Virus record (IMG/VR): IMGVR_UViG_3300050821_002957
Coordinates: 143,192-207,191 of that record
DNA: 64,000 bases
Direction: 5' to 3' (one strand)
Origin: a virus
The translations under genes and the position numbers were made by a program. Under the pieces are notes generated by a model, which saw only the letters and a list, made by a program, of their open reading frames with translations, searched no databases and had not been told where the DNA came from. The number at the start of each line of letters is the position of its first letter. Position 1 is the stretch's first letter. Shown piece by piece: positions 7,228 to 62,962 of the stretch.

Positions 7228-7692
7228 ATGAGCGAAAGACCGCTACCAGGAAAACCACAACCAAGAGAACGCAGACCGTTGGCGGAACCGGAATGGGATG
7301 GAAATGCTTGCCTCTTTATTACGGCACATGCAGCCCGTCGTATGGAGGAACGTTTTGGTCTCACCCGGCTTCGGACTACACCGTTTGAAATTCAGACGAT
7401 GTATTGTGAAGCAACCGACATTGACCGGCCTGTCTGGGCACTTCGGATCAGCAATGGAAAATCAAATGGATGGATTCTTGGCAGATGGGAACTCGCCGAA
7501 CCCGTTCTGGCCCGAGGAATCTACAAATATTGGTTTGTCGGCACCACAGTTATCAACGACAAACAGTTCAATTATTCCCGGCTAGAGGTTCGTAAGACCA
7601 TCAGAATCAACGTCAAACGAATCATCAACGAATCTTCACGAATACGTCCAAAAAGTGAAGATACATCTATTGACATTTACGACCAACTCTGA
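7228..7692 (+). CDS. hypothetical protein
   Basis: 154-aa ORF. Confidence 0.55.
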   Translation: MSERPLPGKPQPRERRPLAEPEWDGNACLFITAHAARRMEERFGLTRLRTTPFEIQTMYCEATDIDRPVWALRISNGKSNGWILGRWELAEPVLARGIYKYWFVGTTVINDKQFNYSRLEVRKTIRINVKRIINESSRIRPKSEDTSIDIYDQL

Positions 7693-8559: not shown

Positions 8560-8763
8560 GTGGTACGATGTGTCATGACTTTTGATCCGCACGATTTCAA
8601 ACCCACGACGCTTGGACTTTGCGAGATTTGCGCCGAGCACAAGTACCATCCTTCGCACCATGAATTTATTCTACATCCCACGTATAGAGGACCCGGCTGC
8701 GCTCATTGTGGAAAGCCGGAAAAAGGTCACAAACCAGCCTCAAAAAAAGTTGAAAAAAATTAG
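8560..8763 (+). CDS. small Cys/His zinc-finger-like protein
   Basis: CEICAEHKYHPSHHEF...CAHCGKPEKGH. Confidence 0.45.
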   Translation: MVRCVMTFDPHDFKPTTLGLCEICAEHKYHPSHHEFILHPTYRGPGCAHCGKPEKGHKPASKKVEKN

Positions 8764-8801
8764 ATACATCTATTGACATCAACCCAGTTGTTTGGTATTC
8801 T
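8763..8801 (+). promoter_or_regulatory. promoter family copy 2: GATACATCTATTGACA, 17 bp, TATTCT, 6 nt, ATG 8808
   Basis: Same box, same spacing and same 6-nt gap to the ATG. Confidence 0.55.
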
Positions 8802-9580: not shown

Positions 9581-9766
9581 ATGATCGAACTTTCAGTAAT
9601 ATTGTCGTGCGGCCACGTTGCTGTCGTAGAGTCGCCGGTTCCCTTTGATATTTTGGATCGGATGGGATTTGCATCGGCATCATGTCCTCAGGGATGTGGT
9701 TATCGAATGATCATCAAGGAAAATAAAGACACATCTTCTATTGACAAACCGAAGAAGGTGGGATAG
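9581..9766 (+). CDS. hypothetical small protein
   Basis: 61-aa ORF with a Cys pair. Confidence 0.4.
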   Translation: MIELSVILSCGHVAVVESPVPFDILDRMGFASASCPQGCGYRMIIKENKDTSSIDKPKKVG

Positions 9767-11752: not shown

Positions 11753-11783
11753 TTGGGAAGTTGACACGCCTGCAATTTGCGGT

Positions 11784-12311
11784 ATGATTGTAGGCGTGTC
11801 AATCCCTAAATTATCGAACAAGCAAATTACTCTCAATGCAGTCCTCCCTCTGAAAGGCGTAACATTCACCGACCGAGAAGCAATGGATGATGCATTTTTA
11901 CCGTACTTCGCACCACTCCAAAATTTCTTCCACGGCGAAGGACATCGTGATCTTGTTGATCGTCTGATTCGTTGTGGATGGATCACTGTAGATCGAGTCA
12001 AAGGCACATTTACCGTGGTGCTTGAAGAAGGCATCCAAGTTGCAATGCAGGCGACCGACCCAACACAAGGCCCGACTCCTCGCACAGTAGAAATGTCATT
12101 TCTGGAAGAACATCAGCCGGTGACGCAACTCACTTTCGTTCAGATGCAAATGATCGATGAAGTCGGGAAGCATACATCATATGATCCAGGCCCCAATGAA
12201 CCGAAGCGAATCGCCATTCTTGAAACTCTTATCGATGCAGGTTTGGTTCAAATTTCATATTCATTGACTCCATTGGGCATTGCAGAATTCAAAAAACTCG
12301 GATCTATTTAA
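11784..12311 (+). CDS. hypothetical protein
   Basis: First ATG of the 11715 GTG-initiated frame; 175 aa. Confidence 0.45.
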   Translation: MIVGVSIPKLSNKQITLNAVLPLKGVTFTDREAMDDAFLPYFAPLQNFFHGEGHRDLVDRLIRCGWITVDRVKGTFTVVLEEGIQVAMQATDPTQGPTPRTVEMSFLEEHQPVTQLTFVQMQMIDEVGKHTSYDPGPNEPKRIAILETLIDAGLVQISYSLTPLGIAEFKKLGSI

Positions 12312-13613: not shown

Positions 13614-14132
13614 ATGATAGAAGATAGAACGGACTCTCAACACGCAGTTTACGCCGGGACGTTCGATCCATTTACAAAAGGTCATGAGCATGTACTGATG
13701 CAGGCGAAGCCACTCTTCGACCGGATCACACTTGCAATCGGTGTGAACCCAGGTAAGAAGACGATGTTCACGTTGGAAGATCGCCTCGCTATGTTGCGTG
13801 ATGTAGCAAATCAGCACAACAGAATGAAGGTCTCCTCTTTCGAGAATTTGTACCTCATGGATTATGCCGAGAGTATTGGTGCCCGGTATGTAATCAGAGG
13901 TCTCCGTAATGCAGCCGATTTTGAGTACGAGCTTTCGATTGCTCAAATCAACAAAGGAATTAATCCTCGTATTCGTACAGTATTTTTCATGGCAGATCGT
14001 GAATTCGCCGACATCAGTTCCAGTGTCGTCAAAGGTCTCATCGGCCCGAAGGATTGGCAGAAAGTTATTAAAGAATATTTGCCGATGGAAATGTGGGAAC
14101 GTTTTTTCAAAATACTTGACAAGAACTCATAG
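13614..14132 (+). CDS. coaD: phosphopantetheine adenylyltransferase
   Basis: YAGTFDPFTKGHEHV (HxGH nucleotidyltransferase motif), RGLRNAADFEYE, ISSSVVKGL; 172 aa. Confidence 0.85.
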   Translation: MIEDRTDSQHAVYAGTFDPFTKGHEHVLMQAKPLFDRITLAIGVNPGKKTMFTLEDRLAMLRDVANQHNRMKVSSFENLYLMDYAESIGARYVIRGLRNAADFEYELSIAQINKGINPRIRTVFFMADREFADISSSVVKGLIGPKDWQKVIKEYLPMEMWERFFKILDKNS

Positions 14133-16547: not shown

Positions 16548-16593
16548 TTTACAATCGTTCATGGATCTGTTAGTATTTGGTCCATGAACGATT
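16548..16593 (+). promoter_or_regulatory. promoter TTTACA, 17 bp, TAGTAT, 7 nt, ATG 16584, embedded in a perfect 12-bp inverted repeat (aatcgttcatgg / ccatgaacgatt)
   Basis: The IR arms bracket the -10 element and include the start codon. Confidence 0.5.
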
Positions 16594-16793
16594 CCCTAAA
16601 AGGCACAATGAATTTGAATGAACTGATCATGGGTGTTCGGGCGGAACCGGCATTTAATGGTAAGGTTCGTCTTAAGTATCTTGCAATTTCAGGAGGCTGT
16701 GGCCCGGAACTGAGCATGGACTTCGATTTAGCAAGAAAAACCATCATGGCATTGGAAACGGCAATGGCGGGTGGAACCTACGAAAGCGAATAA
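16584..16793 (+). CDS. hypothetical small protein (paralog of the next gene at its N-terminus)
   Basis: MNDSLKGTMNL resembles MSDSFLNGSMPG of the 16844 gene. Confidence 0.5.
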   Translation: MNDSLKGTMNLNELIMGVRAEPAFNGKVRLKYLAISGGCGPELSMDFDLARKTIMALETAMAGGTYESE

Positions 16794-16794
16794 A

Positions 16795-16853
16795 GGTACA
16801 TCTACCTGTTGACAATCGCTCATGAGCCTGCTAGAATGGGTTCATGAGCGATT
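16795..16853 (+). promoter_or_regulatory. promoter family copy 4 (GGTACATCTACCTGTTGACA, 17 bp, TAGAAT, 6 nt, ATG 16844) with 12-bp inverted repeat (aatcgctcatga / tcatgagcgatt)
   Basis: Same architecture as the 16548 element. Confidence 0.5.
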
Positions 16854-17185
16854 CCTTTTTGAACGGTTCAATGCCTGGAGATTACGTCGAGCTAGGCGAT
16901 GTCTGCCGAAAACGCCTGGGAATGCAGTGTCAATACGGCTCCCGGTACGCTAACGATCTCTGCAAAGACCTTCGTTACATCGGAACAACCGCCGACTACC
17001 ACTCGATGCAGATTCACCGAGATGACGTTGAAGAGTATGTCGGTCGAGTGGCCATCTATCGCCATAAAATTGGTGCCATTGGGGAAGCCGAATCATTTGC
17101 GTTGTGTCCTGCCGCTCATAGATTTGATTCGCATATTTTTGATGTGGTCGCCGAGTTCATTCGCAAAAAGGACGTAAAATGCTGA
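16844..17185 (+). CDS. hypothetical protein
   Basis: 113-aa ORF. Confidence 0.5.
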   Translation: MSDSFLNGSMPGDYVELGDVCRKRLGMQCQYGSRYANDLCKDLRYIGTTADYHSMQIHRDDVEEYVGRVAIYRHKIGAIGEAESFALCPAAHRFDSHIFDVVAEFIRKKDVKC

Positions 17186-32506: not shown

Positions 32507-33039
32507 GCCTGTTTCTCAGAGCATTGGTGCGTAGCGAAGGCAAGAGTTGCGAAGGCAAACTCAAGTATCCTCGTGAGGACTCTGCTGTCCGTAATGCTCT
32601 CGCAATGACCGAAAAGAAAAAGAAGCTCCACGCTGCCGAGGGCCGGGAGTCAACCGAATTTTTTGAGACGTACAAATGCAACTTTTGTGACGGCTGGCAT
32701 ATCGGTCACCAAACCAACTTCGATTGGATTCCACAGTCACACCGGGCGCAGCATTTGATGATGAATAAGTACGAGTGCTTCAGCAAAATCGATGAAGTCG
32801 TGTGTGGCAAAATTTGGATCAGCAACACAGTTTTCTCGAATCGAATTCTGGAGCATTTTCCGAACGTCAAAGATGAAATGGAGCGTCTTGTTATTTGTCC
32901 GAAATGCAAAGGAACACTGTACAAGAATCATGGCCGTCTTTGGGTGAATCTGGAGACGATCAACCCAGAATCCACTGAAACCATCGAAGCACTTTGGGCC
33001 AAACAAGATGTATCTGTTGACAATCTCGCCGAATCGTGA
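32503..33039 (+). CDS. hypothetical protein with Cys pairs
   Basis: 178-aa ORF. Confidence 0.55.
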   Translation: MSLFLRALVRSEGKSCEGKLKYPREDSAVRNALAMTEKKKKLHAAEGRESTEFFETYKCNFCDGWHIGHQTNFDWIPQSHRAQHLMMNKYECFSKIDEVVCGKIWISNTVFSNRILEHFPNVKDEMERLVICPKCKGTLYKNHGRLWVNLETINPESTETIEALWAKQDVSVDNLAES

Positions 33040-33261: not shown

Positions 33262-33395
33262 AGGCCAATCCTGGTGATTCGTGGAGCCTCTGCTGTTCGA
33301 GGCTCTCCCCACCGGGGTCTTATAAATAAAAACGTGGCAACCCCACATAGGAGGTCATCAATGTCAAGATTTATAGCTTAGGAGGCTTTAAATAC

Positions 33396-34304
33396 ATGCG
33401 TGATGACATCGTAAAACTCATTTACGAAAAAGAGCGGGGAGGATCTCGTTCAAAGTCCCTCAAGACTGGAAAGAAACTCGATCCTCGCATTGACTATGAC
33501 GACGATTTTGATTGGGGTCCGAAACGGATTTCCATAGCTCGTCGTAAAGAATATGGTTGGGACTGCAAGAGTCTCAATTACAATTTGCGTCCTCTCTATC
33601 GGTTCCTGGATCAGTCTGTGGGCCGACCTTGGAATGACGTACACAGCGAGATCCACAGTCAGATTGATCCTCGCACAGCCAACGGCCACACCATTTACAA
33701 ATGCATGGATCACCACGTTGACTCGCATGGCAATGGTGTAGTAAGCTGGCGGCGTTACGGCGGTGGTTTGTACGTCGATGATGACGGTATCCTTTGCAAG
33801 ACCGAATACCATCCTCGTCAACGTCCTGAAGTGCCTGTGACTTCGCTGCACTGGTACGATAATATCTGGTTTCAGCTTCACACTTTTAAGACCAAGGCAA
33901 AGTGTGGATGCGTTCACTTCAAGGAGCCGGTTCATCCTGAGGATGCTGATAAACCTCGTTGGTATCGTCCGTATCGAAACGAGCCTGCCGTCTGCATCCA
34001 CGGTAACGAACCTCTCACTCGTGAAATTTGGTACGTTGTCGAATACGTCTACCACAAGCCGGATGAAATCTACATGGTTCACAAGCTCGAAGACTATCGT
34101 CAACCTGGAGGCGGTCTTCGGCGTGGCTATGAGAAGTGGGGCCTGAGCGAAAGCTACCCGGTTCACTATGTCTACTATCGTGACGTTCCTGAGAAAATGA
34201 AGGACCCAATTGAAAAGTTGACCAAGCGCCGCACTGCAAACCGCAAACACTTGAAGCTCATTCGTAAAGCATTGGAAAAGGCCGCTGGACAAAAAGCGGC
34301 CTGA
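33396..34304 (+). CDS. hypothetical W/Y/H-rich protein
   Basis: Strong AGGAGG RBS; 302 aa. Confidence 0.65.
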   Translation: MRDDIVKLIYEKERGGSRSKSLKTGKKLDPRIDYDDDFDWGPKRISIARRKEYGWDCKSLNYNLRPLYRFLDQSVGRPWNDVHSEIHSQIDPRTANGHTIYKCMDHHVDSHGNGVVSWRRYGGGLYVDDDGILCKTEYHPRQRPEVPVTSLHWYDNIWFQLHTFKTKAKCGCVHFKEPVHPEDADKPRWYRPYRNEPAVCIHGNEPLTREIWYVVEYVYHKPDEIYMVHKLEDYRQPGGGLRRGYEKWGLSESYPVHYVYYRDVPEKMKDPIEKLTKRRTANRKHLKLIRKALEKAAGQKAA

Positions 34305-36913: not shown

Positions 36914-37863
36914 TCCTTACCGGGACCATTGGATCTCATAGCTACGGAACGGCCACGCCGACTTCAGATTACGACTACATGTCCGTCGTGATTGCATCGT
37001 CTGACGTGTACCTGGGTCTTGACAATTGGGGAACTGCTGGAACCAAAGACGACGTTTACGAAGATCCCGAAAAGAGTCTGGTCGAACATCGGTATTTTGA
37101 ATTGAAAAAGTTCGTTGGTATGTGCGCCGGAATGAACCCAAATGCAGTTCCGCTTTTGTGGCTGCAACCGGAGCACTACGAAACCATGTCGGCGGCTGGT
37201 AGAAAGCTCGTCCAGGCCCGAGAGATTTTTAATTCCAAAAAAGCATACGATACGTTCTCTGGTTACGCTCATGGTCAGCTTCAAAAAATGGGCGGCGTGT
37301 TCAATGATGCCGAAGAGTCGAACAAACTCTTGAAGCAAGGTCATATCAAATTTCAAGACTGGTCTGAAGACATGATCAAGCTGCTTCGGATGATTCGTGA
37401 TGGAAAGTCACCGATCCCTGAAGACGCCAAGCCTGCGGACATTTACATTTACGACGAAGGATGGTTGAACGCTCTTATTGCCTTGAAGACTCATTCCAAG
37501 GAAGAGATCAAGCGTATCAAAGACGGTCCAATCACCGGGCGCATGGGAGCGAAGCGGAAAGAGCTTCGTTCTCAATATGGTTTCGACACTAAATTTGCTT
37601 TTCATACGATTCGACTGATGAGAATGTGCGTCGAATTTCTTACGCACCCTGAAGAAGGTCTGAAGGTGTACCGCAAAGACATCGATGCTGACTTCTTGTA
37701 CTCAATCAGAACCGGCGCTGTCTCACAAGAAGACATCAAGAAGATGGCCGACGACCTGTTCGCTCAAGCCAAAGAAGCCTTGGTCACCACGTCTCTTCCA
37801 GATAAGCCTGACACCGAAGCAATTCATAACTTGACGATGGACCTGATTAGATCATCCATTTGA
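36883..37863 (+). CDS. predicted minimal nucleotidyltransferase (PF10127-like)
   Basis: LTGTIGSHSYGTATPTSDYDYMSVV (GS...D-x-D motif); 326 aa. Confidence 0.5.
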   Translation: MSKPDKKDSVILTGTIGSHSYGTATPTSDYDYMSVVIASSDVYLGLDNWGTAGTKDDVYEDPEKSLVEHRYFELKKFVGMCAGMNPNAVPLLWLQPEHYETMSAAGRKLVQAREIFNSKKAYDTFSGYAHGQLQKMGGVFNDAEESNKLLKQGHIKFQDWSEDMIKLLRMIRDGKSPIPEDAKPADIYIYDEGWLNALIALKTHSKEEIKRIKDGPITGRMGAKRKELRSQYGFDTKFAFHTIRLMRMCVEFLTHPEEGLKVYRKDIDADFLYSIRTGAVSQEDIKKMADDLFAQAKEALVTTSLPDKPDTEAIHNLTMDLIRSSI

Positions 37864-37907
37864 CAGATCACAACTTTCCATAGCAGCTATATAACTAATA
37901 GACTGCT

Positions 37908-38372
37908 ATGGATATTACACAGTACATTTCGGTGGGTTTGAGTGCCTTGGGACTTGTAGGTGGTTTATTCTCCTACGTTCTAAGCCTACGTATCAAACAC
38001 GACATTCTAGAGAACAACGAAAAACTTGAAAAAGACATTCAAGCTGCAAAGGACGCAGCTACAGTTGGACTATCTCAACTTAGGAATGATTTACTTCGAG
38101 AGTTTGGAACCAATCAGGATAAGGGCGACGAAAAACGAGAACGCCTTGAACGTGAATTGGGCGATCTCCAGGCCGGTCTTACAGATCGTATTCTAAATGC
38201 AGTAAATGGGAAGTATGTAAGGATCGATATTCATCAACAAGCTATAGCCAATATTCAAGATCGTTTCCTATCCATGAAAGAACTTATCGAAGTCAACATG
38301 GGTAAGATTGAGCAAGGTCTGGATCGGCAAATTTTAGACTTGAAGGATCGAATCTTTCATCAACCCAAATAA
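37908..38372 (+). CDS. membrane-anchored coiled-coil protein
   Basis: N-terminal TM helix and heptad repeats. Confidence 0.5.
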   Translation: MDITQYISVGLSALGLVGGLFSYVLSLRIKHDILENNEKLEKDIQAAKDAATVGLSQLRNDLLREFGTNQDKGDEKRERLERELGDLQAGLTDRILNAVNGKYVRIDIHQQAIANIQDRFLSMKELIEVNMGKIEQGLDRQILDLKDRIFHQPK

Positions 38373-39117: not shown

Positions 39118-39176
39118 TTTTAAGAGCGTCTAGAATCGTCTAGACAATTTCAACGAGGGTGTGTTAGTATGAGAAC

Positions 39177-39869
39177 ATGAAAACTCTGCTAACCGCCCTC
39201 GTTTTATTTGGTGTTGCTGCTTCAGCGCAGACATCGCAAGAAAAGCCGTGCCCAAATGGTGGCTACGGTCCAGATTGCATCGTTCCCGGACTATTGCAAC
39301 TTCCTTCCGAAACCACGACCACTCCTAAGTCCGATAAGATTTCTGACGGATCAACATCAAATGATCTGTTCTTCATGGTTGGCTCCGATTTCGACCGTCC
39401 TGGTTTGCTGCCTCGTGCAAATTACAATGTCGGCCTGGGTCACACTTTCTCCTTCTTGACCAATTCTCCTGTTCATTATTTCGGCGATGAAGTTACCGTT
39501 GCGTACACTTACGAAAACGGTGGACCGAAAGGTTTCTGGCATGGTCCTACAAGCACCAGCACTGAAAGCCTTGGTCTGATGAAAAACATCAGCATTCCGC
39601 ATACGAAGAAAGTTACTGTCTACACTTGGCCGCAACTCGGTCTTACATCCATTTTTACCGGAAAGCCAGCGACAATACTGGATACAAAAGTGGTTGTTGA
39701 TGGTGTTCCTCTTCCTCCCACACAAAATCGTCTGTATGCCGGTTTTGCTATTGGGGCGATCATCCACCTTCCACACAACACGTCCATTTGGATTCAAGAG
39801 AGCTACAACAAAGTCGTGACGGTGCCGTGGTACACAACGACTTCGATTGGCTATACGATCAGCTTCTAA
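39177..39869 (+). CDS. secreted beta-barrel-like outer-membrane protein
   Basis: Signal peptide MKTLLTALVLFGVAASAQT. C-terminus SIGYTISF ends in Phe. Confidence 0.5.
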   Translation: MKTLLTALVLFGVAASAQTSQEKPCPNGGYGPDCIVPGLLQLPSETTTTPKSDKISDGSTSNDLFFMVGSDFDRPGLLPRANYNVGLGHTFSFLTNSPVHYFGDEVTVAYTYENGGPKGFWHGPTSTSTESLGLMKNISIPHTKKVTVYTWPQLGLTSIFTGKPATILDTKVVVDGVPLPPTQNRLYAGFAIGAIIHLPHNTSIWIQESYNKVVTVPWYTTTSIGYTISF

Positions 39870-39989: not shown

Positions 39990-40018
39990 TTGACAGGATA
40001 CGGGTCTTGTGCTATAAA
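39990..40018 (+). promoter_or_regulatory. sigma70-type promoter TTGACA, 17 bp, TATAAA driving the tmRNA precursor
   Basis: Consensus -35, exact 17-bp spacer and near-consensus -10 lying 7 to 8 nt before the acceptor piece. Confidence 0.6.
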
Positions 40019-40025
40019 TAGAGTC

Positions 40026-40325
40026 GTAGCAGATAGTCGAAGTGAACGAAGAACGCTTCTTGGACATGGGTTCAATTCCCATCGGCTCCACCAAAATTCT
40101 GATTTTAGGCATCAGAGAACTTATGGGGCCGCCCCGGTTTCGACAGGATGAGATGTTGCGTAAGCAGGGCTACCGTGGTCCTTGTCCACGTTATCCAGAA
40201 GGAATCATAAACGCTAATGCACCTGCATTTGCTTTCGCTGCCGCTGCCTAAACAGCGCTCGAACGAAGTCGGAGAACTTTGTTAAAGAACTCCCAACAGA
40301 AGGCCGGGGCAACTCGGCCTTTTGC
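40026..40325 (+). ncRNA. ssrA: circularly permuted (two-piece) tmRNA: acceptor piece ends in CCA at 40093, coding piece starts GGGGCCG at 40125, tag frame 40213..40251, terminator 40301..40325
   Basis: T-arm GGGTTCAATTCCC. 3' acceptor strand CGGCUCC-A-CCA pairs with downstream 5' GGGGCCG, giving G3-U70 and discriminator A (alanine identity). Tag ORF ANAPAFAFAAAA + TAA. GC hairpin followed by a T-run. Confidence 0.75.
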
Positions 40326-40932: not shown

Positions 40933-41008
40933 GCCGAATTAGCTCAGTTAGCAGAGCGCCGCCCTCGTAATGCGGAGGTCATGAGTGCAACTCTCATATT
41001 CGGCTCCA
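40933..41008 (+). tRNA. tRNA-like gene, anticodon CGT (Thr), with noncanonical T-loop (TGCAACT) and 31-39 mismatch; CCA encoded
   Basis: Cloverleaf by hand: acceptor GCCGAAT/ATTCGGC, D GCTC/GAGC, anticodon loop CTCGTAA, T-stem ATGAG/CTCAT. Confidence 0.45.
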
Positions 41009-41011
41009 AAT

Positions 41012-41085
41012 GCCGCCTTATTTCAATGGTAGACTCTATCTCTGGTACAGATAGGATTTGGGTTCGATTCCCAAAGGCGGCTCCA
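41012..41085 (+). tRNA. tRNA, anticodon GGT (Thr) in the best parse (alternative parse CTG/Gln); weak D-stem; CCA encoded
   Basis: Acceptor GCCGCCT/AGGCGGC, anticodon stem TATCT/AGATA with loop CTGGTAC, T-arm TTGGG-TTCGATT-CCCAA. Confidence 0.55.
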
Positions 41086-44002: not shown

Positions 44003-44268
44003 GTCTCTCTTTTTCCGAAGAGGGTCATTTTGGCCCTCTTCACTAATCTAAGGCGTTGTATTGATCACGAAGTTGAGTCTTTGTTAATCGTCCGTTTTCG
44101 TAATCCTCCAATAGTTCTGTCAATTTGTTTTCTCGTTCTTGTAGTGTCGATAAACAGCGCTCGACAGCCGGAAAGTTTGTTTTGAGATAAGTCACCAGAA
44201 TATTTAGTCGTGGTAGAAATGGCTTTTAACTCCTTTTGTTTCAAGTAAATAGAGGTATCCCTTAAAAT

Positions 44269-45259: not shown

Positions 45260-45475
45260 TTAGAGAGTATGCTTGCATTTACGACAGCGCAGACCGACTT
45301 CATCATAGCTGCCATCGCCATTTTCTCGGAACAAACGATGAACTGTTGCACGATGACAAAATGGGCATAGAAATTGAAAGAGGGCTTCTTCAGACATAAT
45401 CAAGTCCTGAAGCAAGTCTTCGAGATCGTTCAAAAGGATTTCAGGTATTCCGTACATGGTATTATTTAGATGCAT
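45260..45475 (-). CDS. small zinc-ribbon protein
   Basis: CPFCH...CRKCKH. Confidence 0.45.
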   Translation of the reverse strand: MHLNNTMYGIPEILLNDLEDLLQDLIMSEEALFQFLCPFCHRATVHRLFRENGDGSYDEVGLRCRKCKHTL

Positions 45476-45508
45476 CTACTTGACAAGATCCGACGAATGT
45501 GATATCTT
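45469..45508 (+). promoter_or_regulatory. promoter family copy 5 (GATGCATCTACTTGACA, 17 bp, TATCTT, 6 nt, ATG 45515)
   Basis: Same geometry as the other copies. Confidence 0.5.
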
Positions 45509-45874: not shown

Positions 45875-45913
45875 GATACATCTATTGACTTCTGAACTGA
45901 TCTACGGTAGACT
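45875..45913 (+). promoter_or_regulatory. promoter family copy 6 (GATACATCTATTGACT, 17 bp, TAGACT; 28-nt leader to ATG 45942)
   Basis: Box conserved; the only copy with a leader. Confidence 0.45.
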
Positions 45914-46605: not shown

Positions 46606-46644
46606 GATACATCTATTGACATCTGGTCGGGAATGCGGTATCCT
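46606..46644 (+). promoter_or_regulatory. promoter family copy 7 (GATACATCTATTGACA, 17 bp, TATCCT, 6 nt, ATG 46651)
   Basis: Implies the real start is 46651 rather than the upstream ATG at 46633, which lies inside the spacer. Confidence 0.5.
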
Positions 46645-62429: not shown

Positions 62430-62921
62430 ATGATCTGTAAGAAATGCCAAAATCGTATCCCTACTCGCATTGTAATCGAAGGCCGTCGCCGAAACCTTCA
62501 GCGCCGCAAGTATTGTTTAAAGTGCTCGCCATTCGGAGTCCACAACACTGGCGACCCACAAAAAATTTCTCTTCGAGGTACAGATCGAAAATGCGAAGGA
62601 TGTATCAACATGATAGAACGTCGAAGACGATATTGTTCATCATGCATAAGCCGGATGCGCCGTCACAAAAGAAAACAGGTTGGTGTAGATGTGTTGGGAG
62701 GAAAATGTATGGATTGCGGCTATAATCGATGTCTGGCTGCTCTCTCATTTCATCACCGTGATCCTTCAAAAAAGGAATTTACGATCAGTGAATTTTCGAG
62801 AACTACGATGTCTCGATTCATTGCCGAAGTAAAGAAGTGTGATTTGGTTTGTGCTACATGCCACATCGAGAGGCACTATTTGAAAGATGGAGCCGAGTGG
62901 GAGAATCGAACTCCCGAATGA
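62430..62921 (+). CDS. HNH homing endonuclease
   Basis: CGYNRCLAALSFHHRDPSKKEFTIS...CDLVCATCH. The 3' end overlaps the antisense tRNA by 34 nt. Confidence 0.7.
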   Translation: MICKKCQNRIPTRIVIEGRRRNLQRRKYCLKCSPFGVHNTGDPQKISLRGTDRKCEGCINMIERRRRYCSSCISRMRRHKRKQVGVDVLGGKCMDCGYNRCLAALSFHHRDPSKKEFTISEFSRTTMSRFIAEVKKCDLVCATCHIERHYLKDGAEWENRTPE

Positions 62922-62962
62922 TCGCTTTGCAGGCGAATACCTTACCACTTGGTTAACTCGGC
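62888..62962 (-). tRNA. tRNA-Cys (anticodon GCA), CCA encoded
   Basis: Cloverleaf GCCGAGT-TA-ACCA-AGTGGTA-AGGT-A-TTCGC-CTGCAAA-GCGAT-CATTC-GGGAG-TTCGATT-CTCCC-ACTCGGC-T-CCA. Confidence 0.7.

Follow-up and report, generated by a model that had tools for sequence, protein, structure and literature searches.

Two small neighbouring genes in IMG/VR virus record IMGVR_UViG_3300050821_002957 raise the question of what kind of element is formed when a promoter and a start codon are enclosed by the same inverted repeat. The window analysed here was a stretch of 64,000 nucleotides (positions 143,192 to 207,191 of that record), in which orf69 and orf113 were each preceded by a promoter with complementary arms on either side of its −10 hexamer. 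A sequence-only reading had taken these for a duplicated operator of a dimeric repressor, upstream of two paralogous genes. The window encoded gp2-, gp32- and gp48-like proteins, indicating a T4-related phage; megablast against reference phages gave no match to the window and tblastn yielded generic AAA domains only.

An inverted-repeat search of the window confirmed that both promoters are embedded in inverted repeats, with perfect arms of 13 bp in IR1 and 12 bp in IR2 (Table 1). The IR1 arms were 100% complementary and 15 nt apart. The full IR2 arms of 15 nt contained one G·T (15–16 nt counting G·U), and the perfect 12-mer within them paired 16814–16825 with 16842–16853. The coordinates proposed earlier held except for the left edge of IR2, which had been placed at 16813 and is in fact at 16814. 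The left arm had been described as abutting the −35 and the right arm as containing the ATG; at both sites the 5′ arm began at the final base of the −35 hexamer and the ATG lay within the 3′ arm. Both promoters had a 17 nt spacer and a TG-extended −10, and matched the sigma70-like consensus at 9 of 12 positions (promoter 1) and 11 of 12 positions (promoter 2). The distance from the −10 to the ATG was 7 nt and 6 nt, respectively, and neither site had a Shine-Dalgarno sequence, which is the geometry of a leaderless message. Sigma70-like promoters were likewise predicted by consensus match in the related loci L001, L002, L026 and L030.

Table 1. Positions of the inverted repeats, predicted promoters and genes in the 64,000-nucleotide window
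Feature	Position	Strand	Sequence	Remarks
IR1 5′ arm	16553–16565	+	AATCGTTCATGGA	Within the −35/−10 spacer of promoter 1
IR1 3′ arm	16581–16593	+	TCCATGAACGATT	Holds ATG 16584 and codons 2–4
IR2 5′ arm	16814–16828	+	AATCGCTCATGAGCC	Inverted-repeat search
IR2 3′ arm	16839–16853	+	GGTTCATGAGCGATT	Holds ATG 16844 and codons 2–4
Promoter 1, −35	16548–16553	+	TTTACA	Consensus scan
Promoter 1, −10	16571–16576	+	TAGTAT	Hairpin loop of IR1
Promoter 2, −35	16809–16814	+	TTGACA	Consensus scan
Promoter 2, −10	16832–16837	+	TAGAAT	Hairpin loop of IR2
Cassette 2, 5′ end	16791–16808	+	AGGTACATCTACCTG	TAA stop of orf69 plus the sequence given
U-rich tail	16854–16861	+	CCTTTTTG	Directly 3′ of IR2; codons Ser-Phe-Leu of orf113
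orf69	16584–16793	+	GKVRLKYLAISGGCGPE	Small conserved protein; core given
orf113	16844–17185	+	LGDVCRxRLGMQCQYGSRY...DYHSMxIHxDDV	Small protein; core given
Third hairpin-embedded leaderless promoter (family B)	11761–11802	+		Arms 11761–11776 and 11787–11802
Family B promoter	11761–11766; 11783–11788	+	TTGACA; TATGAT	−35; −10; start GTG 11796 in the 3′ arm
Fourth hairpin, like layout	37877–37912	+	TCCATAGCAG; CTGCTATGGA	Arms, 10 bp perfect
Related layout	39141–39203	+	TAGACA-18-TAGTAT	Promoter, then ATG 39177

RNA folding gave −24.1 kcal/mol for IR1 (z −5.9) and −27.5 kcal/mol for IR2 (z −4.5), and in neither case was any of 200 shuffled sequences equally stable. Among 3000 segments of 60 nt drawn at random from the window, perfect inverted repeats of at least 11 nt occurred just 4 times. 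When the full 64 kb was scanned, IR1, IR2 and the family B site ranked as the three best hairpins, all sharing the layout described, and a start codon lay in the 3′ arm in 4 of the 10 best inverted repeats that were not palindromic. The family B hairpin, located between an RNA ligase gene and a gene encoding 171 aa, folded at −33.8 kcal/mol (z −6.7). The hairpin at 37877–37912 carried TATATAA in its loop and ATG 37908 of a 154-aa ORF in its 3′ arm; its promoter type is uncertain because the −35 spacing does not suit sigma70. The site at 39141–39203 is a weaker case because its loop is 36 nt, the 5′ arm (AACGAGGG, 39152–39159) lying in the spacer and the 3′ arm (CCCTCGTT, 39196–39203) within the ORF, followed by TTATTT. 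Across members, fold energies of the stems enclosing the −10 lay between −24 and −34 kcal/mol and their z-scores between −4.5 and −8, and the start codon was predicted to be fully paired in the minimum free energy structure of all strong members. Rfam at gathering thresholds returned no RNA family match at the site.

Comparison of the arms revealed that structure rather than sequence appears to be what is conserved. IR1 and IR2 differed at two arm positions, and both differences were compensated (T:A to C:G and G:C to A:T), as had been noted from the sequence. Six sequences related to IR1 and IR2 (family A) were aligned over 17 pairs, 93.8% of which were paired, compared with 23–42% in slid controls; double changes occurred at 4 pairs (8 cells), and the covariation score was reached by none of 500 shuffles, a statistic that is weakened by the sequences being few and related (approximately 5–6 independent lineages). 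One further locus, L025, was identical to the window and contributes nothing to the comparison, and the DNA comparison leaves out P0002 (84% identity) and P0005 (75%), two of the closest relatives. Family B, represented by 11761–11802 and its counterparts in L001 and L002, had 18 pairs, 98% paired, with 5 double changes; here a change of the start codon from GTG to ATG was compensated by C to T in the spacer. The cassette of L028 had unrelated arms (TGTGGCAT/ATGCCACA) at the equivalent position. The arms thus co-vary in related phages, and the outcome named beforehand as refuting the sequence-only reading, arms that do not co-vary, did not occur. Every one-sided change either created or removed a G·U, and nearly all non-Watson-Crick positions were sense-strand G·U, which on the opposite strand would be A·C. 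Additionally, the sense RNA was more stable than the antisense RNA in 10 of 10 hairpins. Arms that vary while keeping their complementarity, together with the sense-strand G·U bias, favour a hairpin in the sense RNA and speak less for a fixed operator bound by a protein.

We therefore read each repeat as encoding an RNA hairpin on the sense strand, within approximately 60 bp that also contain a host-type (sigma70-like) promoter for a leaderless mRNA, and put the probability of this reading at roughly 60%. The 5′ arm occupies the −35/−10 spacer, the −10 the loop, and the start codon with the three codons that follow the 3′ arm. Transcription from the embedded promoter is predicted to initiate within the 3′ arm, on the A of the ATG or an adjacent base; the resulting transcript, without the 5′ arm, would be unable to fold and its 5′-terminal AUG would be free. 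A read-through transcript from the upstream gene would contain both arms and could fold into a stem of approximately 13–18 bp, acting as a terminator, an attenuator or a 3′-end structure, and in any RNA that continued past it the AUG would be buried in the hairpin. With read-through either ended or masked in this way, the downstream genes would be expressed only from their own promoters. The start codon had earlier been thought to be occluded by a bound protein; occlusion by RNA pairing in read-through transcripts is a plausible substitute, and the masking would be partly redundant because an AUG without a Shine-Dalgarno sequence in a polycistronic RNA would be expected to be poorly translated anyway. 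In its furthest-reaching form, which we consider somewhat less likely than not, a single unit of approximately 60 bp would stop or silence RNA arriving from upstream and start a 5′-AUG mRNA of its own, so that translation of the gene would depend on which promoter made its RNA. The cassette would also give the first three to four codons, at times with a Phe-rich U-tract, to any gene recombined onto it, such that a regulatory RNA structure would directly shape the N-termini of unrelated proteins.

The alternative closest to the original proposal is a palindromic operator, at which a dimeric or tetrameric DNA-binding protein occupying both arms blocks RNA polymerase, the orf113 product being a candidate. 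The promoter-in-palindrome geometry reaching the start codon stands, the dyad symmetry is perfect and centred at the −10, and at 4 of 7 family-A-type sites the gene directly downstream is an orf113 homologue. Joint change of half-sites would also be expected under selection by a symmetric, co-evolving dimer. The arms, however, varied freely among relatives (AATCGCTCATGA, AAATGCTCATGGA, AACCGATCATGGA, TGTGGCAT), whereas in the orf113 family the residues of two helices predicted near the N-terminus (G18–R22 and G26–Y35) were almost entirely invariant, and the asymmetries were nearly all sense-strand G·T, which is meaningless to a protein on duplex DNA. The half-site centres were 26–31 bp apart, far beyond those of MerR-type or usual helix-turn-helix operators. 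The cassette was present in L001 although there was no orf113 homologue within 12 kb, family B precedes an unrelated gene, and the architecture was repeated with unrelated sequences at 11761, 37877, L028 and L002; conversely, a distant orf113 homologue (L031) was led by a Shine-Dalgarno sequence and the repeat was absent. A search for further copies of the arm motif had been proposed: AATCGNTCATG with at most 1 mismatch gave 10 matches in the 64 kb against 8.0 expected, exact matches being confined to the four arms, so there were no extra half-sites past chance, and a genome-wide operator motif was rejected. The orf113 product had no significant Foldseek structural match and no Pfam match. The operator is thus the weaker interpretation, and we consider it unlikely.

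The duplication of the cassette was borne out, but not the paralogy of the genes that it precedes. BLASTP gave no alignment between the orf69 and orf113 proteins, which belong to two unrelated small-protein families with separate homologues and different conserved cores; orf69 had no Pfam match. The arm-encoded N-terminal residues were unconserved in both families. In orf113 the N-terminal 11 residues were unconserved and of low confidence, and the orf69 homologues P0041 and P0042 started near the internal Met, the first 8 residues being unconserved. The MxDS N-terminus common to the two proteins is explained by translation of the right arm of a portable cassette, and a shared N-terminal peptide can therefore be the by-product of a nucleic acid element and not a sign of paralogy. 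Public gene calls started both orf69 and orf113 at internal Met codons, a disagreement for which a leaderless cassette would account; for orf69 a leaderless start at 16584 and an internal start at 16608 are both possible. In L028 the conserved core of the orf113 family began at codon 5, and therefore no alternative start is available there.

Comparison with the relatives showed that the portable unit takes in everything between the upstream gene's stop codon and approximately codon 4 of the downstream gene. The AGGTACATCTACCTG stretch was conserved ahead of the −35 in relatives regardless of the upstream gene, with matches to 16791–16808 in L001 (7390–7406), L002 (8564–8580) and L030 (146–162). 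Unrelated genes were found behind the type-2 cassette (CATGAGCC.../GGTTCATG): orf113 in the window, a homologue of orf61 in L001, and in L002 a zinc-ribbon ORF. The orf113 family in turn was found behind three cassettes: type-2 in the window, type-1 in L026 and L030, and a third in L028. L002 kept the promoter but had lost the outer half of the stem, and in this locus at least a complete stem is therefore not required. Both orf69 and orf113 were absent from loci L001–L023. The cassettes flank variable small genes in a hypervariable interval that lies between the genes for an AAA ATPase and a peptide deformylase. No two close relatives matched the window in the contents of this interval, which was empty in L004 and L006, where the deformylase gene directly followed the AAA gene.

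The sequences 3′ of the stems bear on what the hairpin would do to read-through RNA. U-rich stretches (5–6 T in 10) followed the stems of IR2, L026, L030 and L028, and L001 had a weaker tail (4 T in 10), giving U-rich tails at 4–5 of 7 family A sites. IR2 was scored as terminator-like (17 pairs, loop of 6, T-run), and it and L026 passed the terminator scan. The IR1 and family B hairpins had no U-tract (1–3 T in 10), and canonical intrinsic termination would therefore not be general. The lack in most hairpins of the U-tract required for intrinsic termination would suit a reading in which the read-through hairpin is cut by an RNase III-like nuclease, as between T7 early genes, so that cleavage would separate and stabilise the upstream message, in place of transcription termination or masking of the AUG. 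The stems were long and nearly perfect, at 15–18 bp on the sense strand, and stood exactly at transcription-unit boundaries, and other gene-end hairpins of the window (e.g. 44017–44041) were also without U-tracts. Escherichia coli RNase III sites typically have approximately 20 bp, however, and the present stems were shorter; processing also leaves unexplained both the start codon in the 3′ arm and the U-rich tails of several members. We regard it as quite improbable.

The homology between the window and L001 ended after ATGAGCGATT and that with L002 after GGTTCATGA, in both cases at or inside the 3′ arm of the cassette, which probably also supplies homology for gene shuffling. These breakpoints, and the speculation by the authors who described a related phage cassette that its stem-loop might be a recombination target (PMC2839356), would suit an element acting as DNA (a cruciform or single-strand hairpin for recombination or supercoil-dependent control, or a neutral template-switch quasi-palindrome), but this is very improbable, as a cruciform treats both strands equally yet mismatches were tolerated only as sense-strand G·U, and a neutral quasi-palindrome would not recur at a fixed place relative to the −10 and start at at least four promoters with unrelated sequences. 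An N4-type hairpin or single-strand promoter was set aside because the −35/−10 is that of an ordinary duplex sigma70 promoter, with the −10 in the loop and not in the stem.

The sense-strand hairpin reading places the cassette beside two systems of T4-type phages. The first is the PeSL (promoter-early stem-loop) cassette (PMC2839356), present in the T4-like phages RB49/phi1, PST and nt-1 (Arbiol et al. 2010, PMC2839356; Comeau et al. 2014, PMC4122927). Like PeSLs, the present cassette is a composite element of approximately 50–60 bp that occupies short gaps between genes where the genome of a T4-related phage is hypervariable. It starts with the stop codon of the preceding gene, has a promoter that is strong and sigma70-like by consensus with a stem-loop between the −35 and −10 or over the −10 (the most frequent placements in PeSLs), and flanks small orphan genes, with similar copies ahead of unrelated genes. 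For PeSLs, insulation from transcription arriving from upstream and a part in modular shuffling have been proposed, and the same is suggested here. Unlike the PeSL, which ends in a Shine-Dalgarno sequence and start codon, the present cassette has no leader; the start and three codons are inside the 3′ arm, and the cassette writes the N-terminus (MSD/MND) of the protein it drives. Its stems are not of the GGGG...CCCC type, and only two similar copies were found in this 64 kb, compared with dozens. Terminator activity, promoter activity and mini-circles have been demonstrated for PeSLs (PMC2839356; PMC4122927), whereas the promoter and terminator functions of the present cassette are predicted.

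The second system comprises the T4 genes e (lysozyme), soc, 49 and I-TevI, in which hairpins are split by an internal promoter (PMC3014915). As in these genes, an RNA helix would sequester the initiation region in transcripts started upstream, and the promoter lies in the DNA for the 5′ strand or loop of the helix, the predicted +1 being here in the 3′ arm. The transcripts that such a T4 promoter makes are without the 5′ strand and hence translated; the split-hairpin logic is equal and the phage lineage shared. The internal promoter in T4 is a late promoter (TATAAATA) that provides early/late timing, whereas here the embedded promoter, like the one upstream, resembles the sigma70 type: the loops held TAGTAT or TAGAAT with a proper −35, and TATAAATA was found elsewhere in the window (33321, 40013 and 60194). 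Additionally, the T4 messages keep a Shine-Dalgarno leader while those of the cassette appear leaderless, and the T4 cases are gene-specific while the cassette is shared and portable. What is new is the leaderless form with coding sequence as an arm; the underlying logic is already known, and no new field is opened. If the reading is correct, two T4 paradigms, shuffling promoter/stem-loop cassettes and internally split hairpins, reach a distant relative of approximately 400 kb; the cassette would offer a handle on small-gene shuffling in very large phages and a compact natural part combining terminator/insulator, promoter and leaderless start in approximately 60 bp. We suggest, tentatively, that portable leaderless split-hairpin cassettes form a class in giant T4-related soil and peat phages, an undescribed leaderless counterpart of the PeSL. 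IMG/VR scans with a single AAA protein and three cassette DNA patterns found nothing, and IMG/VR profile scans gave 2 + 2 loci with the cassette in none.

Leaderless messages have precedents in phages, among them the lambda cI transcript from PRM. Cluster O mycobacteriophages produce leaderless transcripts from SigA/sigma70-type promoters; unlike here, no hairpin pairing the spacer with the start codon is described for them, and their 17-bp palindromes are separate elements, mostly away from promoters (PMC4351075). A spacing of 6–7 nt from the −10 to the start was the peak at approximately 18 promoter-like sites of the window, and six loci showed leaderless-type spacing ahead of their AAA ATPase gene as well; this phage of approximately 400 kb appears to rely heavily on leaderless mRNAs. 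A fold z below −3 was obtained for 7 of 44 leaderless-type promoters compared with 1 of 150 random segments. The hairpin was rejected as a general property of leaderless promoters, most of which had z near 0: approximately 12 of the 18 in the window were without a strong hairpin, which is therefore an option and not a rule.

A repeat search recovered both inverted repeats that the sequence-only reading had described at the starts of orf69 (IR1, ATG 16584) and orf113 (IR2, ATG 16844). Each encloses a sigma70-like promoter with a TG-extended -10 (see table). Of 3000 random 60-nt segments of the window, 4 had a perfect inverted repeat of at least 11 nt, RNA folding gave -24.1 kcal/mol (z -5.9) for IR1 and -27.5 kcal/mol (z -4.5) for IR2, and a hairpin scan of all 64 kb returned as its top three IR1, IR2 and another site with the same layout. 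The two repeats are more than chance. When +1 was placed by taking the -10 as -12 to -7, the first base of the start codon became +1 or +2. As a Shine-Dalgarno sequence has no room between the -10 and the ATG, both promoters are probably of the leaderless-mRNA type, which the sequence-only reading had not remarked on.

The two genes had also been taken for paralogues, which was refuted, as their 69-aa and 113-aa products gave no BLASTP alignment and had separate sets of homologues. The orf69 family shared the conserved core GKVRLKYLAISGGCGPE and the orf113 family LGDVCRxRLGMQCQYGSRY...DYHSMxIHxDDV. The initial 8-12 residues lacked conservation in both families, and residues 1-11 of the predicted orf113 model had a pLDDT <50. 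Judged from the DNA, the MxDS common to both proteins is the translation of the right arm, ATGAnCGATTCC. Public gene calls on identical DNA started at internal methionines, at 16608 rather than 16584 for orf69 (61 aa) and at 16871 rather than 16844 for orf113 (104 aa); the leaderless starts appear to have been overlooked by standard gene callers. The true start of orf69 is ambiguous because the internal start has a plausible Shine-Dalgarno sequence, AAAGG.

The window belongs to a contig of ~404-405 kb and encodes gp2-, gp32- and gp48-like proteins and a tape-measure-like protein, from which we infer a giant T4-related myovirus. The AAA ATPase gene (AAA) upstream of orf69 had ~30 orthologues in metagenomes. 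The gene order was RNA ligase, x, IMPDH-like, cytidylyltransferase, AAA, variable small genes and peptide deformylase, and the contents of the AAA-to-deformylase interval varied in every close relative; neither orf69 nor orf113 was found across related loci L001-L023. The AAA orthologues P0004, P0014, P0018, P0019 and P0028 were ~340 aa longer (e.g. L002 5001-8420) and carried Hom_end, Hom_end_hint and LAGLIDADG_3 domains. The ATPase of these relatives thus probably contains an intein with a homing endonuclease, which is absent from the window copy.

Comparison of these loci indicates that the ~60-bp cassette (promoter inside the hairpin, start codon in the 3′ arm) is portable, as one cassette precedes different genes and one gene family follows different cassettes. 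The conserved unit spanned from the upstream stop codon (TAAAGnTACATCTAcc) to ~10-13 nt inside the downstream ORF. The window IR1 is a type-1 cassette, and type 1 also preceded two orf113 homologues. In L001, the sequence 3′ of the AAA gene (...TAAAGCTACATCTACCTC TTGACA AATCGCTCATGAGCCTGC TAACAT AGGTTC ATGAGCGATTT) fused the type-2 cassette to the homologue of orf61, giving the protein MSDLRIGDRV..., whereas the window orf61 is Shine-Dalgarno-led and begins MLRVGDRV.... L002 had the same promoter and 5′ arm as the window type-2 cassette before an unrelated zinc-ribbon ORF; identity stopped after GGGTTCATGA, so that only the inner 9-10 pairs of the stem survive. At L030 133-156 a second hairpin, GTAGCTAC-CCTAAAAA-GTAGCTAC, separated the cassette from the stop codon of AAA, placing two consecutive stem-loops before that orf113 homologue.

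Features of the window and of related loci
Feature	Position	Strand	Details
IR1	16553-16565 / 16581-16593	+	13 nt, perfect, 15 nt between arms
IR2	16814-16828 / 16839-16853	+	15 nt, single G·T; perfect 12-mer 16814-16825 / 16842-16853
Promoter 1, sigma70-like, inside IR1	TTTACA-17 nt-TAGTAT-7 nt-ATG 16584	+	consensus match
Promoter 2, sigma70-like, inside IR2	TTGACA-17 nt-TAGAAT-6 nt-ATG 16844	+	consensus match
Hairpin, other sequence	37877-37912	+	ATG 37908 in 3′ arm; TATATAA in loop
Related hairpin layout	39141-39203	+	5′ arm in spacer, 3′ arm within ORF, then U tail
Hairpin around -35	34280-34301
AGAT(A/G)(C/T)ATCT, window	7660-7669, 8763-8772, 9728-9737, 33007-33016, 45469-45478, 45875-45884, 46606-46615	+
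AGAT(A/G)(C/T)ATCT, window	about 6185	-
AGAT(A/G)(C/T)ATCT, relatives	L002 ~282, L004 ~8418, L006 ~6152		conserved
AAA-to-deformylase interval, window			orf69, orf113, orf61, orf215, orf88
AAA-to-deformylase interval, L001			orf61 homologue, orf215 homologue, three others
AAA-to-deformylase interval, L002			zinc-ribbon ORF, orf215 homologue
AAA-to-deformylase interval, L004 and L006			empty
orf113 homologue, L026			type-1 cassette, AAATGCTCATGGA/TCCATGAGCATTT
orf113 homologue, L030			type-1 cassette, AACCGATCATGGA/TCCATGATCGGTT
orf113, window			type-2 cassette
orf113 homologue, L028			unrelated cassette, TTGACA TGTGGCAT ... ATGCCACA

An alignment of six sequences of family A (types 1 and 2) showed 17 pairs with 93.8% of cells paired and double-sided changes in four pairs (eight cells). 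Its covariation score was matched by 0/500 shuffles, and sliding the partner by 1-3 columns gave pairing of only 23-42%. Family B, an unrelated promoter with the RNA ligase gene on one side and a conserved gene of 127-177 aa on the other, was aligned from the window (11761-11802), L001 and L002 and showed 18 pairs, 98% paired, with five double changes, one of which replaced GTG by ATG as the start codon and was matched by a C-to-T change in the promoter spacer. The compensated co-variation of the arms that had been claimed was thereby borne out in relatives. One-sided changes in both families were all to or from G·U when read on the sense strand; non-Watson-Crick cells comprised 13 G·U, one A·C and one other mismatch (truncated L002 arm left out), and the sense RNA hairpin was stabler than the antisense in 10/10 cases, by 0.3-8.5 kcal/mol. 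As the sequences are few and related (~5-6 independent lineages), these figures are supportive rather than conclusive of conservation of complementarity, not arm sequence, on the sense strand. The bias suggests sense RNA, since it would not be expected of a cruciform or of a protein bound to double-stranded DNA.

This G·U bias is left unexplained by the dimeric repressor/operator proposed earlier, in which a protein would bind the palindrome at its arms. The promoter-in-palindrome geometry behind that proposal stood, but the operator mechanism is unlikely. In the orf113 family, nearly all residues of the two helices predicted at the N-terminus are invariant, yet the arms before its members differ; the centres of the half-sites lie 26-31 bp from each other; L001 carries the cassette without an orf113 homologue; and the distant orf113 homologue of L031 is Shine-Dalgarno-led with the repeat absent. 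A motif search found no further half-sites beyond chance in the 64-kb window.

The best explanation, to which we give a probability of about 60%, is a PeSL-like (promoter-early stem-loop), leaderless, split-hairpin promoter/insulator cassette, in which every functional step is predicted: where transcription starts, translation without a leader, termination or masking, and recombination. RNA begun upstream of the -35, e.g. from the AAA leaderless promoter at 14116, would alone hold both arms and form a stem of 13-18 bp that sequesters the AUG and leaves the -10 sequence in its loop. RNA from the embedded promoter would have its 5′ end inside the 3′ arm, be unable to fold and carry a 5′-terminal AUG. 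The hairpin would thus act on read-through only, by terminating or attenuating transcription, by insulating translation, or by both. At IR2 (CCUUUUUG), L026, L030 and L028 the stem was followed by a U-rich tail, and a weaker one was present in L001; a terminator scan accepted IR2 and L026, and in three orf113 homologues the U-tract would encode Phe at residue 4-5. IR1, the family B hairpins and a gene-end hairpin (44017-44041) had no U-tract, which counts against a purely canonical terminator. Directly 3′ of both IR1 (16590-16600) and the unrelated family B hairpin (11801-11811) was TCCCTAAA, in differing frames, perhaps by coincidence, perhaps as a signal common to the two 3′ flanks.

PeSLs of T4-like phages, the closest known match, start at the upstream stop codon, flank orphan genes in hyperplastic regions, have demonstrated terminator and promoter activity and mediate modular shuffling (PMC2839356; PMC4122927). 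The cassette shares the sequence features of PeSLs with one exception. The 3′ end of a PeSL holds a Shine-Dalgarno sequence and start codon, whereas the cassette would give a leaderless message with a coding 3′ arm. T4 genes e, soc, 49 and I-TevI have the same logic of a start site that splits the hairpin (PMC3014915), but with another promoter class, and the cassette is shared between genes. Leaderless phage promoters are already known, e.g. in Cluster O mycobacteriophages (PMC4351075).

Across the window, ~18 plus-strand sigma70-like promoters had a start codon 6-7 nt past the -10 (e.g. 7670, 8773, 11761, 14116, 33017, 36848, 45480, 46616 and 51714). The arrangement at the AAA gene was retained in six related loci, Shine-Dalgarno sequences were present at downstream genes within operons, and the genome seems to use leaderless mRNAs throughout. 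Most of the ~18 lacked significant structure; the hairpin layout is not universal among them. It turned up again with other sequences at 37877-37912, 39141-39203 and 34280-34301 (see table). At 37860-37865, a perfect TTGACA encloses the stop codon TGA of a 326-aa nucleotidyltransferase-like gene; the nearest -10-like element, TATATAA (37888-37894), is 22 nt off, a spacing at odds with a sigma70 promoter for the hairpin-embedded start at 37908. Many promoters had the palindrome AGAT(A/G)(C/T)ATCT directly 5′ of the -35 (TTGACA), often after an A-run, and cassette 2 had half of it (ACATCTA); it could serve as an UP-like element or as the site where a regulator binds.

Rfam identified tRNAs at 40933-41005 (+), 41012-41082 (+) and 62891-62962 (-) and a permuted tmRNA at 40032-40251 (+, 93.5 bits). 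Upstream of the tmRNA, 40013-40020 matched the T4 late-promoter consensus TATAAATA, which occurred at 33321, 40013 and 60194, all on the plus strand (3 observed, 0.54 expected in the window), consistent with T4-type late promoters. One copy stopped 1 nt short of the gp48-like baseplate gene start (60203), and these putative late promoters are possibly leaderless too.
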